This document shows positions 2,089 to 7,951 of a DNA stretch of 7,951 nucleotides, piece by piece. The DNA is from a virus (Duplodnaviria > Heunggongvirae > Uroviricota > Caudoviricetes), in IMG/VR virus record IMGVR_UViG_2563366854_000004. One strand, 5' to 3'. Numbering within the stretch: the stretch's first letter is position 1; each line of letters begins with the position of its first letter. The notes under the pieces were generated by a model. The model had not been told where the DNA came from. It did no database searches and saw only the letters and a list, made by a program, of their open reading frames with translations. The position numbers were made by a program, and so were the translations under genes.

Positions 2089-3725
2089 ACAGCGTCATCC
2101 CACCGGCAGTACAGCACCTGACGGTGGAGGTGAGTGCAGCTGACGGCCAGTATCTGGCGCAGGCTAAATGGGACACGCCGCGGGTGGTGAAGGGCGTGCG
2201 CTTCAGTCTGCGCCTGACCAGTGGTAAGGGAACGGATGCCAGACTGGTGACCACCGCCATCACCGCAGACACGGAGCACCGTTTCAGCGGCCTGCCGCTC
2301 GGGGAATACACCCTGACGGTGCGGGCGATAAACAGCTATGGCCAGCAGGGTGAACCTGCCACCACCACCTTCCGGATTGCCGCACCGGCAGCACCGTCGC
2401 GGATTGAGCTGACGCCGGGCTATTTTCAGATAACCGCCACGCCGCATCTTGCTGTTTATGACCCGACGGTACAGTTTGAGTTCTGGTTCTCAGAAAAGCG
2501 GATTACCGATATCAGGCAGGTTGAAACCACAGCCCGCTATCTTGGTACGGCGCTGTACTGGATAGCCGCCAGTATCAATATCAAACCGGGCCATGATTAT
2601 TATTTTTACGTTCGCAGTGTGAACACCGTTGGCAAATCGGCATTCGTGGAGGCTGTCGGTCGGGCGAGCGATGATGCGGAAGGTTACCTGGATTTTTTCA
2701 AAGGAGAAATCGGGAAAACACATCTGGCCCAGGAGTTGTGGACGCAGATTGATAACGGTCAGCTTGCGCCGGACCTGGCTGAAATCAGGACGTCCATTAC
2801 GAATGTCAGCAATGAAATCACGCAGACCGTCAATAAAAAACTGGAAGACCAGAGTGCGGCAATCCAGCAGATACAGAAAGTTCAGGTTGATACAAATAAT
2901 AACCTGAACAGCATGTGGGCCGTGAAACTGCAGCAGATGAAGGACGGACGCCTTTATATTGCGGGTATCGGAGTCGGTATTGAGAATACGCCAGCAGGTA
3001 TGCAGAGTCAGGTGCTTCTGGCTGCTGACCGGATTGCGATGATTAATCCTGCGAATGGCAACACAAAGCCGATGTTTGTTGGTCAGGGCGATCAGATATT
3101 CATGAACGACGTGTTCCTGAAACGCCTGACGGCTCCGACCATTACCAGCGGCGGTAATCCTCCGGCATTTTCCCTGACACCGGACGGGCGGCTGACGGCG
3201 AAAAATGCCGATATCAGCGGTAACGTGAATGCGAACTCCGGGACGCTCAACAACGTCACGATTAACGAGAACTGTCGGGTTCTGGGAAAATTGTCCGCGA
3301 ACCAGATTGAAGGCGATCTCGTTAAAACAGTGGGCAAAGCTTTCCCCCGGGACTCCCGTGCACCGGAGCGGTGGCCATCAGGAACCATTACCGTCAGGGT
3401 TTATGACGATCAGCCGTTTGACCGGCAGATTGTTATTCCGGCGGTGGCATTCAGCGGCGCTAAACATGAGAAAGAGCATACTGATATTTACTCCTCATGC
3501 CGTCTGATAGTGCGGAAAAACGGTGCTGAAATTTATAACCGTACCGCGCTGGATAATACGCTGATTTACAGTGGTGTTATTGATATGCCTGCCGGTCACG
3601 GTCACATGACACTGGAGTTTTCGGTGTCAGCATGGCTGGTAAATAACTGGTATCCCACAGCAAGTATCAGCGATTTGCTGGTTGTGGTGATGAAGAAAGC
3701 CACTGCAGGCATCACGATTAGCTGA
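2046..3725 (+). CDS. J: Tail tip host-specificity protein J, C-terminal ~559-aa portion (likely a truncated remnant of a >1100-aa gene)
   Basis: Largest ORF in the window. Contains fibronectin-III-like segments (e.g. [23 protein letters not shown]) typical of the central part of lambda J. It lies immediately upstream of lom, as J does in lambda. The start is a GTG at 2046; this frame is open back only to a stop at 1992-1994, so no N-terminal half is present. Confidence 0.7.
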
Positions 3726-3743
3726 ATTTTATAACCCAGATAC

Positions 3744-4543: not shown

Positions 4544-6034
4544 ATGACAGTAAAAATTTCTGGCGTGCTTAAAGATGGCACAGGAAAACCAGTACAGAAC
4601 TGCACCATTGTGCTGAAGGCCAGACGAACCAGCAGCACGGTGGTGGTGAACACGGTGGCCTCTGAAAATCCGGATGAAGCCGGACGTTACAGCATGGATG
4701 TTGAGCATGGTCAGTACAGCGTCACCCTGCTGGTTGAAGGTTTTCCGCCTTCACATGCCGGGACCATTACCGTCTATGAAGGTTCCAGACCAGGTACGCT
4801 GAATGATTTTCTCGGTGCCATACCTTCTGCCCGTAAGGTGAATGGTAAGGCGCTTTCAGCGGATATAACACTGACGCCGAAAGATATTGGTACGCTTAAC
4901 TCAACAACAATGTCATTCAGCGGTGGTGCTGGTTGGTTCAAATTAGCAACGGTAACCATGCCACAGGCGAGTTCTGTTGTTTCAATTACGTTGATTGGTG
5001 GTGCGGGATTTAACGTGGGGTCACCTCAACAGGCAGGTATATCTGAACTTGTTTTGCGTGCAGGTAATGGTAATCCGAAGGGGATTACTGGTGCTTTATG
5101 GCAGCGCACATCGACAGGGTTTACAAATTTTGCCTGGGTCAATACATCTGGTGATACTTACGATATTTACGTTGCAATCGGAAATTATGCGACTGGTGTA
5201 AATATTCAATGGGATTATACCAGTAATGCCAGCGTGACGATTCATACGTCACCAGCATATTCTGCTAATAAGCCGGAAGGGTTAACGGACGGTACAGTTT
5301 ATTCACTCTATACGCCATCAGAGCAGTTTTATCCGCCTGGCGCACCAATCCCGTGGCCATCAGATACCGTTCCGTCTGGCTATGCCCTGATGCAGGGGCA
5401 GACTTTTGACAAATCTGCATACCCGAAACTTGCAGCCGCTTATCCGTCAGGCGTGATCCCTGATATGCGTGGCTGGACGATTAAGGGCAAACCCGCCAGT
5501 GGTCGTGCCGTATTGTCTCAGGAACAGGACGGCATTAAATCGCACACCCACAGCGCCAGCGCATCCAGTACGGATTTGGGGACGAAAAACACATCGTCGT
5601 TTGATTACGGAACCAAATCCACGAATAACACCGGGGCGCATACGCACAGTCTGAGTGGCTCTACGGGGTCTGCCGGTGATCATACTCATGGTAATGGTAT
5701 TCGTTGGCCAGGAGGCGGCGGTTCTGCGTTAGCATTTTATGATGGCGGTGGGTTCACTTATGTCCAGGATTCACAGTATCAAGTAAGCCCGGGGACTTCT
5801 TCCCGTAGATCGTATTATCAACGTATTCAGACACAGTCAGCAGGTGCTCATACCCACTCGCTGTCTGGTACTGCAGCAAGTTCTGGCGCACATGCACATA
5901 CTGTAGGTATTGGTGCGCATACGCACTCCGTTGCGATTGGTTCACATGGACACACCATCACCGTTAACGCTGCTGGTAACGCGGAAAACACCGTCAAAAA
6001 CATCGCATTTAACTATATTGTGAGGCTTGCATAA
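4544..6034 (+). CDS. stf: Side tail fibre protein (lambda Stf-like N-terminal anchor, tail-collar-like middle, His-x-His repeat distal region)
   Basis: 496 aa. N-terminus [22 protein letters not shown] closely resembles the conserved lambda Stf anchor. The middle has a tail-collar-like motif ([39 protein letters not shown]). The distal part has repeated GAHTHS / HxH units. C-terminus [11 protein letters not shown] is typical of fibres that need a Tfa chaperone. Stop overlaps the tfa start (TAATG at 6032-6036). Confidence 0.85.
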
Positions 6035-6618
6035 TGGCATTCAGAATGAGTGAACAAGCACGGACCATAAAAATTTATAATCTGCTGGCCGGAACTAATG
6101 AATTTATTGGTGAAGGTGACGCATATATTCCGCCTCATACAGGTCTGCCAGCAAACAGTACCGATATTGCACCACCAGATATTCCTGCTGGCTTTGTGGC
6201 TGTTTTCAACAGTGATGAGGCATCGTGGCATCTCGTTGAAGACCATCGGGGTAAAACGGTTTATGACGTAGCGTCAGGGGACGAGTTATTTATTTCTGAA
6301 CTCGGTCCGTTACCGGAAAATGTTACCTGGTTATCGCCGGAAGGGGAGTTTCAGAAGTGGAACGGCACAGCCTGGGTGAAGGATACGGAAGCAGAAAAAA
6401 TGTTCCGGATCCGGGAGGCGGAAGAAACAAAAAACAACCTGATGCAGGTAGCCAGTGAGCATATTGCGCCGCTTCAGGATGCTGCAGATCTGGAAATTGC
6501 AACGGAGGAAGAAACCTCATTGCTGGAAGCCTGGAAAAAGTATCGGGTGTTGCTGAACCGTGTTGATACATCAACTGCACCTGATATTGAGTGGCCTACG
6601 AACCCTGTCAGGGAGTAA
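6034..6618 (+). CDS. tfa: Tail fibre assembly protein (Tfa chaperone)
   Basis: 194 aa, immediately after and overlapping stf. Sequence ([24 protein letters not shown] ... [25 protein letters not shown]) matches the lambda Tfa family in size and termini. Confidence 0.85.
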
Positions 6619-6667
6619 TCATTGGGATTATGCCGCAGCACGTCTTAAGCAAGAACGTGCTGCGGTT
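6454..6667. repeat. Direct repeat copy 1: tfa 3' end plus terminal hairpin
   Basis: Aligns by eye with 7502-7716 at roughly 85-90 percent identity (e.g. TTGCGCC ... GATCTGGAAAT ... GCAACGGAGGAAGAAA ... TATCGGGT ... CGTGTTGATACATCAACTGCACC ... CCTGTCAGGGAGTAATCATTGGGATTATGCCGCAG). Homology ends right after the hairpin. Confidence 0.8.
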
Positions 6668-6683
6668 GGATGCTATTTTTTCC
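6633..6683 (+). terminator. Hairpin with downstream T-run after tfa; possible terminator and module boundary
   Basis: 10-bp perfect inverted repeat CCGCAGCACG (6633-6642) / CGTGCTGCGG (6656-6665) with a 13-nt loop, then TTGGATGCTATTTTTT. The T-run is not directly adjacent to the stem, so the terminator call is tentative. An imperfect copy of the hairpin recurs at 7681-7714. Confidence 0.4.
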
Positions 6684-7341
6684 CTGAAGCGGAAAACATT
6701 ACTACAGTACCTTGAACCTTGGTTTTAACATTCTCGAAATGCTCTGAGAGTATATGTGTTAAGCCTTCTTCGGAATCTTTTGTGTTTGAAAAGATGCCTT
6801 TCTGATTGTAAATGCGCATCAGTTTTTGACCGAAGCTATTGTGCACAACTCCATCGCCAAGAATTGTGGCTCCGTATAGAGTTCCATCGTCAGTTAAGGC
6901 CTGCGCCGCATTGCGTATTACACAGCTTTTTGTAGATATATTTCCAGGCAGGCAGTGAAGAAGGTAAAACATGGAAATGGAATCAAATTGACCATGTAAC
7001 GCCGCGGGATAAGGTTCAAAAACATCATGGCTAATTTTATGTTTAATTTTTGATTCCCCAGCCCTTGTAGATGCCGCGTTCAGGCTAGCTTCGTTCAAAT
7101 CCATTAAAGATATCAGACTACTCTCAGGTACGTGAGTAAGGTAAAACCCAGTTCCAACACCAATATCCAGATGGTTGTTACCTACATGTTCCAGAAAGTG
7201 TGGAAGAAGGTGTTCCTTTGTAGGACATCCCCATGCAAGCCGATTTGATACTCCCAAAACCCACCAGTCATAAAGCTTTAGGGTAAGTGGTGTGTAAATT
7301 TTAGCCCCATCATCTGTGTTTTTTTTCATTGATTTCACCAT
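6673..7341 (-). CDS. Class I SAM-dependent methyltransferase (small-molecule/RNA type, not an obvious DNA methyltransferase); cargo gene of unknown function
   Basis: 222 aa on the opposite strand to all phage late genes. Motif I LDIGVGTGFY (glycine-rich SAM loop), acidic end of the next strand (ISLMDLN) and motif-II-like ISMFYLLHC. No DPPY/NPPY motif. Region is visibly AT-rich against GC-rich flanks. From memory it resembles uncharacterised methyltransferases annotated in E. coli cryptic prophages (ybcY / ymfD type); not verified. The true start may be the second ATG (7327-7329), which has a GGTGA Shine-Dalgarno 5 nt upstream. Confidence 0.8.
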   Translation of the reverse strand: MVKSMKKNTDDGAKIYTPLTLKLYDWWVLGVSNRLAWGCPTKEHLLPHFLEHVGNNHLDIGVGTGFYLTHVPESSLISLMDLNEASLNAASTRAGESKIKHKISHDVFEPYPAALHGQFDSISMFYLLHCLPGNISTKSCVIRNAAQALTDDGTLYGATILGDGVVHNSFGQKLMRIYNQKGIFSNTKDSEEGLTHILSEHFENVKTKVQGTVVMFSASGKK

Positions 7342-7370
7342 GTTATAGTTTTATTTGTGAATTAAATCAA
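7342..7370 (-). promoter_or_regulatory. Candidate sigma70 promoter for the methyltransferase gene
   Basis: Read on the minus strand: TTGATT (-35; + strand 7365-7370), 17-nt spacer, TATAAC (-10; + strand 7342-7347). The predicted transcript start falls near the first ATG, favouring the second ATG as the initiator. Confidence 0.4.
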
Positions 7371-7397
7371 TTATGGCGATGAATTACAAGGGGTTAA

Positions 7398-7718
7398 ATG
7401 CTGCCGCAGCATAGCGATATTGAAATAGCCTGGTATGCTTCGATACAGCAGGAGCCGAATGGCTGGAAGACCGTCACCACACAGTTCTACATCCAGGAAT
7501 TCAGTGAGTATATTGCGCCACTGCAGGATGCTGTAGATCTGGAAATCGCAACGGAGGAAGAAAGATCGTTGCTGGAGGCATGGAATAAATATCGGGTATT
7601 GTTGAATCGTGTTGATACATCAACTGCACCGATATTGAGTGGCCTGCAAATCCTGTCAGGGAGTAATCATTGGGATTATGCCGCAGACACGTCGTATGCA
7701 GGAACGTGCTGCGGTTAG
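7398..7718 (+). pseudogene. Tail fibre assembly protein remnant: unrelated ~35-aa N-terminus fused to a frameshifted Tfa C-terminal segment
   Basis: 106-aa ORF. Residues [42 protein letters not shown] match the tfa C-terminal region ([42 protein letters not shown]); the frame then shifts so the ending differs from intact Tfa. The N-terminal part has no similarity to Tfa. Confidence 0.55.
7502..7716. repeat. Direct repeat copy 2: diverged, frameshifted tfa 3' end plus imperfect hairpin
   Basis: Same orientation as copy 1. It has a 1-bp deletion relative to copy 1 (CACC-GATATTGAG versus CACCTGATATTGAG), changing the frame, and a 1-nt insertion in the 5' hairpin arm (CCGCAGACACG). Confidence 0.8.
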
Positions 7719-7780
7719 TTTGTGAGCTTTCGATAGTGGTTGTTATTTTTGCCCTTATTTGTTCCGGAGGCCATGGTTCA

Positions 7781-7951
7781 ATGGTCCGTCTGCCCCCTGT
7801 GGTGATGTCAGCAAAATCAGCCACTGCGCGAACCACAATAGCCCGGGAAGATGCTGAAGATCACCAGGTAAAGCTGTCAGCGCAGAAACTGGAAGAACTG
7901 CTCGCATCAATGGTTAAGGATGAGGTTGATCGCAATGATGGGATTTATTGA
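7781..7951 (+). CDS. Small hypothetical protein (~56 aa), function unknown
   Basis: ATG at 7781 preceded by GGAGG (7766-7770) at 10-nt spacing; ends with TGA exactly at the window end. Charged, likely helical C-terminus (KLSAQKLEELLASMVKDEVDRNDGIY). The longer TTG-initiated version (7670-7951) starts inside the tfa remnant and is not favoured. No family recognised. Confidence 0.35.
   Translation: MVRLPPVVMSAKSATARTTIAREDAEDHQVKLSAQKLEELLASMVKDEVDRNDGIY

Follow-up and report, generated by a model that had tools for sequence, protein, structure and literature searches.

A methyltransferase moron behind tfa of a lambdoid prophage, in a probable recombination scar

Behind the tail fibre assembly gene tfa of a lambdoid prophage of E. 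coli, a methyltransferase gene with its own predicted promoter lies between two direct, diverged copies of the tfa 3' end. The whole, situated at the prophage's right end, is probably a scar left by recombination around a moron; it would have originated by non-homologous joining and then spread by tfa homology. The features are collected in Table 1, in the coordinates of the window, that is, the whole stretch of 7,951 nucleotides analysed (IMG/VR record IMGVR_UViG_2563366854_000004, Caudoviricetes). The original prediction had described this arrangement and proposed that the cargo was acquired by recombination within conserved tfa 3' ends. Its observation is confirmed, and its interpretation is supported in part only: the tfa 3' end is a zone of recombination, but both inner junctions of the cargo are non-homologous, which speaks against such an origin.

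Table 1. Positions of the features in the window
Feature	Position	Strand or setting	Basis
tfa, complete tail fibre assembly gene, 194 aa	6034..6618	+	ORF list; Pfam Caudo_TAP, E 1.3e-44
Repeat copy A: last 54 codons of tfa with stop, spacer and hairpin A	6454..6667	+	alignment, blastn
Hairpin A, 11-bp perfect outer stem, no bulge	6633..6665	between convergent tfa and methyltransferase	folding
Cargo, 835 bp, ends fixed in every examined carrier	6668..7502		IMG/VR loci and E. coli genomes
Class I SAM-dependent methyltransferase, ybcY family, 218 aa from probable ATG at 7329	6673..7329	-	Pfam, PHROG 2132
Divergent promoter region, predicted	7342..7397	-	consensus scan
orf79 5' fragment, codons 1-35, PHROG 3893 family	7398..7502	+	PHROG match, residues 3-37
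Repeat copy B: last 54 codons of another tfa allele, spacer and hairpin B; 1-bp deletion	7503..7716	+	
Hairpin B, A7687 bulged, followed by T-rich flank	7681..7714		folding
Chimeric ORF: orf79 codons 1-35 and tfa C-terminus	7398..7718	+	ORF list, junction in frame

The direct repeats were delimited as 6454-6667 and 7503-7716 by gapped alignment and repeat finding, and three repeat families (D1, D2 and D6) recur in the window at spacings of 1049, 1048 and 1049. By blastn, copies A and B share 88.1% identity over 227 columns (E = 1.5e-79), and copy A shares 89.8% over 215 columns, with 22 differences, with the unframeshifted copy B of UTI89. Thus, the claim that about 214 bp of the tfa 3' end recur in direct orientation is borne out, with the second copy at 7503-7716 and the identity at about 88-90%. 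The frameshifting 1-bp deletion claimed for the second copy is also real, since T6582 finds no partner between 7630 and 7631; yet it is a recent mutation private to the lineage of the window, because the right-hand copy is 215 bp long and in frame in UTI89 and in all full-length right-hand copies of IMG/VR. Decay of copy B is seen in three ways, namely this frameshift, a TGA in tfaX of K-12 and a 7-bp deletion in phage 2G7b. The window tfa is 93% identical in DNA to that of lambda-like HK629, and this homology stops exactly at 6667. Over the 54 codons, dS between the two copies is 0.44 and dN is 0.046; the dN/dS of 0.10 at this dS indicates that they diverged under protein-level selection. In addition, full-length tfa genes elsewhere (loci L020 and L110) carry several of the variants specific to copy B. 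Copy B is therefore no duplication in place but comes from another tfa allele, of which it keeps the last 54 codons. The two longest blocks of identity between the copies (39 and 35 bp) lie just 5' of the hairpin, the next ones being 16 and 15 bp, and the window contains no Chi site.

The inner junctions, 6667/6668 and 7502/7503, are both non-homologous joins. On the left, similarity of the window to the cargo homologs in Citrobacter and Salmonella stops at 6667/6668, exactly where hairpin A begins and six bases beyond the methyltransferase stop codon. On the right, orf79 is cut after codon 35 and joined in frame to tfa (7503-7398 is divisible by 3), and orf79 and tfa have CAGG.A...AG in common at the join. 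An intact orf79 of 79 aa is found in Citrobacter, where it is divergent from the methyltransferase gene and the DNA matches the window to about 7500; many phages and e14-like prophages of E. coli also have intact copies. The usual place of the gene is about 1.5 kb downstream of a tfa, in the same orientation. Owing to the frameshift, the chimeric ORF that starts with the orf79 fragment has 106 aa in the window, against 89 aa in UTI89. It matches PHROG 3893 at residues 3-37 and only positions 75-130 of the 131 positions of the Pfam profile Caudo_TAP (PF02413), and is not a full-length member of the latter family, its N-terminal 35 residues being those of PHROG 3893/orf79. A full-length Tfa with the N-terminus of the ORF at 7398 was not found, the best 120 matches all being fragments of 48-155 aa. 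The tfaX-like small "tail fiber assembly protein" downstream of ybcY is thus chimeric, an orf79 stub joined to what remains of a tfa. A DinI fragment called by PGAP on the minus strand (7416-7496) was rejected as probably an artefact: a similar PGAP call lies antisense to the 5' part of an orf79 homolog in another locus (L153), and the substitutions between the window and Citrobacter in this region, judged by eye, are mostly synonymous in the plus-strand frame.

The arrangement probably arose from two parent phages by a non-homologous crossover. One phage would have carried tfa allele A with hairpin A, then the methyltransferase gene, oppositely oriented and with a promoter of its own, and a divergent orf79. 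The other, collinear with it, would have had tfa allele B and hairpin B, followed by a downstream flank of its own. Because of the usual distance and orientation of orf79 relative to tfa, an out-of-register exchange between collinear phages would give a direct repeat. Such a crossover would have joined orf79 codon 35 of the first phage to tfa codon 141 of the second at short microhomology; the product would have kept a complete tfa and gained the methyltransferase gene, with a useless tfa 3' remnant that continues the reading frame of the orf79 stub. Hairpin A would meet the 3' end of the methyltransferase gene at a second, older non-homologous junction. The predicted intermediate, consisting of tfa, hairpin A, the methyltransferase gene and an intact orf79, was found in none of 80 viral loci that have an intact orf79, and no sign of it was seen in the annotations of phage tblastn or E. 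coli blastn matches or in two loci that were opened. The nearest arrangement that turned up was only the order DinI-methyltransferase-orf79 of the Citrobacter type.

The hairpins differ in their association with the cargo. A 76-nt segment with hairpin A folds at -28.6 kcal/mol, with z scores of -3.96 on the plus strand and -3.63 on the minus strand, on which the hairpin lies 7 nt past the methyltransferase stop codon. A terminator scan did not call hairpin A, and on the methyltransferase strand no T-run follows the hairpin. The unbulged type is present in all 49 copies followed by the cargo, and hairpin A is kept with the cargo where copy A of tfa is absent (loci L028, L072 and L094). The bulge reported for the second hairpin does exist, one extra A (7687) protruding from the stem. 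However, the bulged form is the common state and the unbulged hairpin A the one specifically linked to the cargo: bulged hairpins are also found in lambda-like HK629, whose b region contains the identical 35-nt sequence of hairpin B (locus L006, 5288-5321), and in cargo-free, hairpin-bearing single-copy tfa genes. In HK629, ea47 also sits between two direct copies of the hairpin. Most likely, the hairpins act as terminators or 3'-end stabilisers at module boundaries.

The non-homologous interval between the repeats, 6668-7502 (835 bp), contains the methyltransferase ORF on the minus strand and, as consensus matches, the promoter, both of which had been predicted to lie there. The longest form of this ORF would begin at 7341, but the start is probably at 7329, as PHROG 2132 covers residues 5-222 of the long form and the homologs mostly have 218 aa. 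The protein belongs to the class I SAM-dependent methyltransferases by its Pfam matches (Methyltransf_12, 23, 25 and 11; Methyltransf_12 at 37.5 bits against a cutoff of 30, the others also above their cutoffs) and by its confident fold: the AF2 model has a pLDDT of 90.8 and resembles many class I methyltransferases with a Foldseek probability of 1.00. A DNA methyltransferase (N6-A, N4-C or C5) was rejected, since no DNA-methylase Pfam matched and the best 50 fold matches in the PDB are all small-molecule, lipid or natural-product methyltransferases; by sequence, PDB matches are weak, with E of about 1e-3 only. Distant homologs are stand-alone chromosomal genes. PHROG 2132 has no assigned function, and the neighbourhoods of these distant homologs are uninformative. 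Two candidate promoters were found on the minus strand by consensus scan, TTGATT-17-TATAAC at 7370-7342 and TTAACC-16-CATAAT at 7397-7370, in a region conserved in the cargo homologs of Citrobacter and Salmonella. In K-12, the ybcY promoter has been placed in the ybcY/tfaX spacer, at a SELEX site to which RNAP-sigma70 binds in vitro and where H-NS binding is also recorded (Shimada et al., 2014; PMC3946193), and the motif listed for that site is the one located in the window at 7370-7342. The methyltransferase would be a host-derived enzyme of the small-molecule type, and its own sigma-70 promoter probably drives its expression in the lysogen. About 71% of the complete E. coli genomes (3,844 of 5,426) carry the cargo, and in the carrier loci of IMG/VR no incomplete cargo occurs and the identity is nowhere below 98%. 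Homologs without tfa flanks are found in Citrobacter (window 7484-6661, 92%) and Salmonella (7398-6667, 88%).

Several other explanations of the repeats must be weighed against a non-homologous origin. It is very improbable that the tfa 3' end was duplicated in place, with the methyltransferase gene inserted between the copies and the second copy decaying neutrally. Although the repeats are direct with about 1 kb between them, and several lineages have a truncated and disrupted second copy, the data already contradict this course: the dN/dS and dS values point to divergence under protein-level selection, what directly precedes copy B is part of orf79 and not of tfa, and the cargo is 98-100% identical among carriers while the repeats differ by 10%. 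The fixed ends of the cargo, and the recurrence of the hairpin family at cassette boundaries including that of ea47 in HK629, might suggest instead that the cargo is a mobile element which was inserted at the hairpin by transposition or site-specific recombination and duplicated its target. However, transposase, integrase and terminal inverted repeats are missing from the window, 6668-7502 also lacks a short exact target duplication, a "target duplication" of 214 bp with 10% divergence matches no known transposition mechanism, and one end of the cargo is a truncated gene. Insertion of a mobile element is thus extremely improbable. Just as improbable is that the repeats are two genes of the Rfam small RNA family IS009 (RF02111). 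The match at 6377-6575 does reach 223.8 bits, above the gathering score of 117, and that at 7421-7624 falls just under it at 112.5 bits; but the former is wholly within the tfa frame, which is under strong protein-level constraint, and the latter aligns poorly across the part derived from orf79. The IS009 family itself is largely tfa coding sequence.

Selection might also keep the arrangement if the chimeric ORF, 89 aa when intact, were a functional mini tail-fibre-assembly or regulatory protein. This ORF has a good Shine-Dalgarno sequence with an ATG at 7398, its fusion is in frame, the spacer of K-12 has an RNAP-binding site and a predicted promoter, and there are many clusters of intact versions of 82-101 aa. 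The conserved C-terminal domain of Tfa is reportedly retained (North et al., 2019). Against this, the protein lacks the N-terminal fibre-binding domain, as judged from the Pfam positions matched, it has been inactivated or truncated independently in the window, K-12, 2G7b and PhiR26-type phages, and it is missing from alleles without the insert and from Nissle-type remnants. A function of the chimeric protein as the reason for the arrangement is therefore improbable.

As for a recombination scar spread by tfa homology, comparison of phage and prophage loci indicates that the cassette did spread through its flanking homology, since the repeats have different outer limits in different phages. 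The same cargo occurs behind at least five left limits and at least four right limits: copy A starts with the full tfa, at 6473, 6498 or 6521, or consists of the hairpin alone, and the right-hand limit of copy B is 7622, 7645-48 or 7670 where the copy is not complete. In some loci, common tfa alleles have taken the place of the right-hand copy from 7503 onward. These multiple limits around one cargo bear out the tfa 3' end as a recombination zone. With tfa homology on both sides, homologous recombination by RecA or phage Red can move the cassette between lambdoid phages, and once formed it would be carried into others by such exchange. A scan of IMG/VR with a 23-mer common to both copies found no other cargo between two tfa ends; every listed locus with two matches had a spacing of 1049, and the carriers among the 80 loci classified, of at least 120 matches, all had the 835-bp cargo. 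The original prediction that the cargo could be lost or exchanged is thus in keeping with cargo-free alleles at the same site, but exchange finds no counterpart in the examined two-copy loci, all of which have the same cargo.

Alleles without the insert were found in 20 of the 5,426 complete E. coli genomes, in which a single tfa is joined to the downstream flank of copy B; the insert with this flank is present in 1,113 genomes. The phages ev099 and PhiR42_1 also lack it, and the gene is thus present in some and absent from other collinear phage genomes, as in morons. All but one of the inspected empty alleles are at the same ompW-yciE-trp site. Related prophages therefore do have the single tfa 3' end, here a chimeric one, that was expected at an empty site. 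Site patterns were sampled in 11 of the 20, and all 11 are A-type through 6558 and have hairpin B on the right. The switch from A to B lies within 6559-6638, which spans the 39-bp and 35-bp identity blocks; several of these alleles have extra copy-B-like patches, and since such patches are also polymorphic among copy-A sequences, the switch points are resolved only to this interval. Strict identity of up to about 30 bp is needed for bacterial recombination, according to a statement in one paper (PMC8918686, citing Shen and Huang, 1986). A crossover in the two blocks just 5' of the hairpin would delete the cargo and regenerate one intact chimeric tfa. An empty allele gaining the cassette by double crossover would give the same site patterns, which do not polarise the events. 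The comparison shows, at the level of sequence, that presence and absence of the insert result from recombination at tfa homology; the direction of the events we infer.

It is possible, though unlikely, that the tfa 3' end together with the CCGCAG...CTGCGG hairpin serves as a general portable homology handle for morons behind the tail-fibre operon. If so, morons could be moved between unrelated lambdoid phages and precisely removed with tfa undamaged, and since the same hairpin brackets ea47 in HK629, the locus would represent a wider cassette-exchange system at the boundary of the late operon and the b region and not a one-off scar. As it stands, the locus is a base-by-base worked example of moron acquisition, with a non-homologous join, homologous spread and natural empty alleles. 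Its value is mainly for annotation and teaching, and no new kind of biological system is involved. The corrections to annotation concern the tfaX-like chimera, the probable methyltransferase start, the DinI fragment as a probable artefact and IS009 as largely tfa coding.

No earlier description was found in the literature on tfaX/tfaD and on methyltransferase morons of lambdoid phages, but the arrangement is already annotated in the K-12 record, where tfaD and tfaX are CDSs, ybcY is a pseudogene, and the feature that encloses them bears the label cryptic prophage DLP12. The tfaD-ybcY-tfaX locus has the same gene order, orientation and cargo, with 96.9% DNA identity over window 6180-7643. The two loci differ in that the methyltransferase gene is intact in the window, whereas ybcY of K-12 is a pseudogene; that tfaX of K-12 has a TGA, a third tfa type after about 7576 and no hairpin, whereas copy B of the window is complete through the hairpin; and that the K-12 prophage adjoins appY and ompT, whereas that of the window is at ompW. 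The Pin/Gin/Cin segments of e14, Mu and P1 also involve duplicated 3' parts of tfa and stf at the tail-fibre locus. However, in those segments the copies are inverted beside a serine invertase, and e14-like loci do have inverted tfa copies and pin, while the copies in the window are direct and no invertase ORF is present, so that inversion is impossible here and the locus is, as predicted, no invertible segment of this type. Morons, in the sense of Juhala and Hendrix, are extra genes with their own promoter and terminator between conserved genes of lambdoid phages. Like them, the methyltransferase gene stands alone, is of host origin, is transcribed against the late operon and is variably present in collinear phages; a promoter is predicted for it, and a hairpin lies next to it. 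Unlike them, its hairpin has no T-run on the moron strand, and it is bracketed by a 214-bp direct repeat of the 3' end of the upstream gene, which makes it removable and transferable by homologous recombination. The boundaries of lambdoid mosaic modules arise through illegitimate recombination, after which conserved linkers serve for homologous exchange. Again, the inner joins of the window are non-homologous and the outer exchanges lie in the conserved C-terminal part of tfa. There is no essential difference from such boundaries, except that the window locus also keeps both parental gene fragments, and the arrangement is one of ordinary lambdoid mosaicism.

In the window, the right end of a defective lambdoid prophage, head-tail genes are followed by the last 559 aa of J, lom, a shortened stf and tfa, then by a class I methyltransferase encoded on the other strand, a 3' fragment of a second tfa and a tail-fibre remnant. 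Over 5900-7951 it shows 100% identity with E. coli B-1109 and 99.9% with UTI89, APEC O1, S88 and many other ExPEC strains, in which the prophage ends at a truncated ompW beside yciE and the trp operon. The 559-aa part of J directly follows the head-tail genes (~1717-2100). Its ORF becomes homologous to the UTI89 J gene at 2026 and enters the Pfam Ig_J domain as early as residue 11, so the prophage has lost most tail genes together with the N-terminal portion of J and is defective. stf has 496 aa vs 1,035 aa in UTI89; about 1.6 kb is absent (position 6305 of the UTI89 locus joined to 7922), and the frame stays open. When translated, the remnant downstream of copy B matches the C-terminal part of two PHROG tail fibre protein families (7703 and 1141) rather than tfa, and in UTI89 the truncated ompW comes after it, marking the prophage end.

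Features of the repeat-bracketed locus and its neighbours
Feature	Coordinates	Strand	Remarks
stf	4544-6034		break near 4821
tfa	6034-6618
Copy A	6454-6667		tfa 3' end with hairpin A
Hairpin A	6633-6665		11-bp perfect outer stem
Non-homologous interval	6668-7502		835 bp, three parts
Methyltransferase (ybcY family)	7329-6673	minus	stop codon 6675-6673
Promoter motif in the divergent promoter region	7370-7342	minus	TTGATT-17-TATAAC
orf79 stub	7398-7502		first 35 codons of a small gene here named orf79
Copy B	7503-7716		direct repeat of copy A, with hairpin B
Hairpin B	7681-7714		one extra A (7687) out of the stem
Third remnant	7763-7951		on to ~8032 in comparison loci L007 and L001; PGAP: DUF4376 pseudogene with internal stop (TGA 7949-7951)

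The original prediction was that the tfa 3' end recurs as a diverged direct repeat on both sides of a cargo segment. A repeat search and gapped alignment bear this out, with spacings of 1049, 1048 and 1049 between the copies, which are 88.1% identical in blastn across 227 columns (E = 1.5e-79). The frameshifting 1-bp deletion noted in copy B is also present (T6582 has no partner between 7630 and 7631). It is private to the lineage of the window; UTI89 and the full-length right-hand copies of the IMG/VR loci are in frame, and the intact UTI89 copy B differs from copy A at 22 of 215 columns. Over the 54 common codons, dS is 0.44 and dN 0.046, and the resulting dN/dS of 0.10 indicates that the copies diverged while each encoded a working protein. 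Judged from these sequences, copy B derives from a different tfa allele than copy A, and some copy-B-specific variants are carried by full-length tfa genes elsewhere (L020 and L110). After juxtaposition, the copy-B remnant decayed independently: the window has the frameshift, K-12 tfaX a TGA and phage 2G7b a 7-bp deletion; in addition, copy B is cut short at 7622 in PhiR26_1 and 2G7b, and in K-12 it changes to a third type of tfa. IS009, an sRNA predicted in E. coli (Rfam RF02111), has hits at 6377-6575 (223.8 bits; gathering score 117) and at 7421-7624 (112.5 bits). Since these hits fall in coding sequence of tfa, the family seems to be mostly a tfa nucleotide profile.

The methyltransferase scores over the cutoffs of Pfam Methyltransf_12, _23, _25 and _11. 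Its longest ORF starts at 7341, where the ATG abuts the published -10 (TATAAC, 7347-7342). Because of this, and because PHROG 2132 and most homologs have 218 aa, the true start is probably the ATG at 7329. The TTGATT-17-TATAAC motif is the ybcY promoter of a published list (PMC3946193), assigned there to an RNAP-sigma70 SELEX site with H-NS binding between ybcY and tfaX of K-12. In a fold search with the AF2 model (pLDDT 90.8), the top 50 PDB matches were all methyltransferases of small molecules, lipids or natural products (among them PE N-methyltransferase, JHAMT and NodS), with no likeness to DNA or RNA methyltransferases; on this predicted fold, a DNA methylase system was rejected. In Salmonella and Enterobacter, homologs with 56-65% identity occur as stand-alone genes of the chromosome, which fits the capture of a host gene by a phage.

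Both inner junctions are non-homologous joins. On the left, Citrobacter and Salmonella homologs parallel the window for six bases past the methyltransferase stop and part from it at 6667|6668, exactly where hairpin A starts. On the right, orf79 switches to tfa between 7499 and 7503, where the parents share only a short microhomology (CAGG.A...AG). Residues 3-37 of the ORF in the window align with PHROG 3893 (79 aa), and in Citrobacter freundii the methyltransferase module (92% DNA identity) lies beside an intact 79-aa orf79, whose sequence parallels the window until ~7500. Given this switch and the in-frame fusion, the small "tail fiber assembly protein" called by annotation pipelines is a chimera, orf79(1-35)::Tfa(141-194). 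It covers only profile positions 75-130 of Pfam Caudo_TAP and has 89 aa in UTI89 and 106 aa in the window. Lambdoid and e14-like prophages commonly carry an intact orf79 beside a DinI gene and immediately after the tail-fibre genes. Because orf79 usually follows a tfa of like orientation at a distance of ~1.5 kb, two collinear phages recombining out of register, one within orf79 and the other within tfa, would naturally yield a direct repeat.

The incomplete "DinI family protein" of PGAP at 7416-7496 (minus strand) is probably an artefact; in an e14-like prophage (L153, 4522-4599), PGAP places a similar feature on the strand opposite the orf79 homolog, in its 5' part. The 45-aa hypothetical protein of PGAP at 6591-6728, which runs from the tfa stop across hairpin A into the 3' end of the methyltransferase, is probably spurious. 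In the DLP12 remnant of strain Nissle (L011, 5001-5761), which holds a truncated integrase, a partial tfa, the methyltransferase and ompT, cargo homology ends at window position 7427 and there is no second tfa copy; the ORF that starts where orf79 would is a diverged form of 63 aa (MMPRHNEFEY...).

The cargo occurs at ≥ 95% identity in 3,844 of 5,426 complete E. coli genomes and also in isolated phages including PhiR26_1, PhiR29/30, 2G7b and ev243. Among 80 classified IMG/VR loci, all carriers hold it complete, at least 98% identical and with the same ends. Its surroundings vary. On the left, copy A is a full tfa, starts only at 6473, 6498 or 6521 with unrelated fibre modules ahead of it, or has shrunk to nothing but hairpin A. 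On the right, copy B extends to 7622, 7645-48 or 7670, or is whole and followed by the flank seen in the window. In some phages, copy B is swapped from 7503 onward for common single-copy tfa alleles. Constant inner joints with variable outer exchange points are expected from homologous recombination in the flanks. The proposal that the cargo could be exchanged between the repeats is unsupported, as no other cargo was found among these carriers. The segment is not invertible, the aligned repeats being direct as noted, and a transposon reading was likewise rejected.

Related prophages with a single tfa at an empty site had been anticipated and do exist. A synthetic join of the upstream part of copy A to the copy-B flank is matched in one piece by 20 genomes, vs 1,113 genomes with the insert and the same flank. 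The inspected examples have the gene order J-lom-stf-tfa and, after it, the same remnant as the window; apart from one, they lie at the ompW-yciE-trp site. One intact tfa is present in all 11 sampled; it is A-type as far as 6558, with a hairpin and flank of B-type. The change occurs within 6559-6638, which holds perfect-identity blocks of 39 bp and 35 bp, the sole blocks above 16 bp between the copies. Their lengths are of the order of the minimal identity for bacterial recombination, put at no more than ~30 bp (PMC8918686). Some empty alleles equal a known insert-linked copy A plus hairpin B exactly (L010 matches L084/L045, L016 matches L071/L061, and L008 the majority type). These patterns fit deletion between the repeats, and equally well gain of the cassette by double crossover into an empty allele.

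The bulge noted in the second hairpin is confirmed. The unbulged hairpin A occurs in 49 of 49 copies followed by the cargo, and the segment containing it folds at z = -3.96. Cargo-free, hairpin-bearing single-copy tfa genes, including that of lambda-like HK629, have the bulged type followed by TTAGTT; thus, the bulge is the common state. The stems of the window and HK629 differ by a compensatory C:G to A:T change. The family occurs in at least four flanking contexts, in one of which a T-run on the opposite strand makes a canonical intrinsic terminator. The hairpins probably act as terminators or 3'-end stabilisers. In HK629 (L006), ea47 lies between two direct CCGCAG...CTGCGG hairpins (3699-3732 and 5288-5321); the latter, in the b region, has 35 nt identical to hairpin B and a similar flank after it (59 nt at ~90% identity in all). 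Hairpin A is also covered by a weak Rfam hit (6602-6664; 32.6 bits vs a gathering score of 76) to the chromosomal Shigella sRNA CssrB, which may include a related prophage hairpin.

No dissection of the locus was found in the literature on tfaX/tfaD and on lambdoid methyltransferase morons, and some details may be new, namely orf79::tfa as a chimeric ORF, the pair of non-homologous joints and the empty alleles that occur in nature. The arrangement itself and the underlying principle are already known. In K-12, DLP12 is annotated as tfaD, ybcY (pseudogene) and tfaX in the same arrangement, with 96.9% identity to the window over 6180-7643. Morons and mosaic-junction scars are long-established concepts for lambdoid phages, and the locus can be regarded conceptually as a moron plus a mosaic-junction scar.
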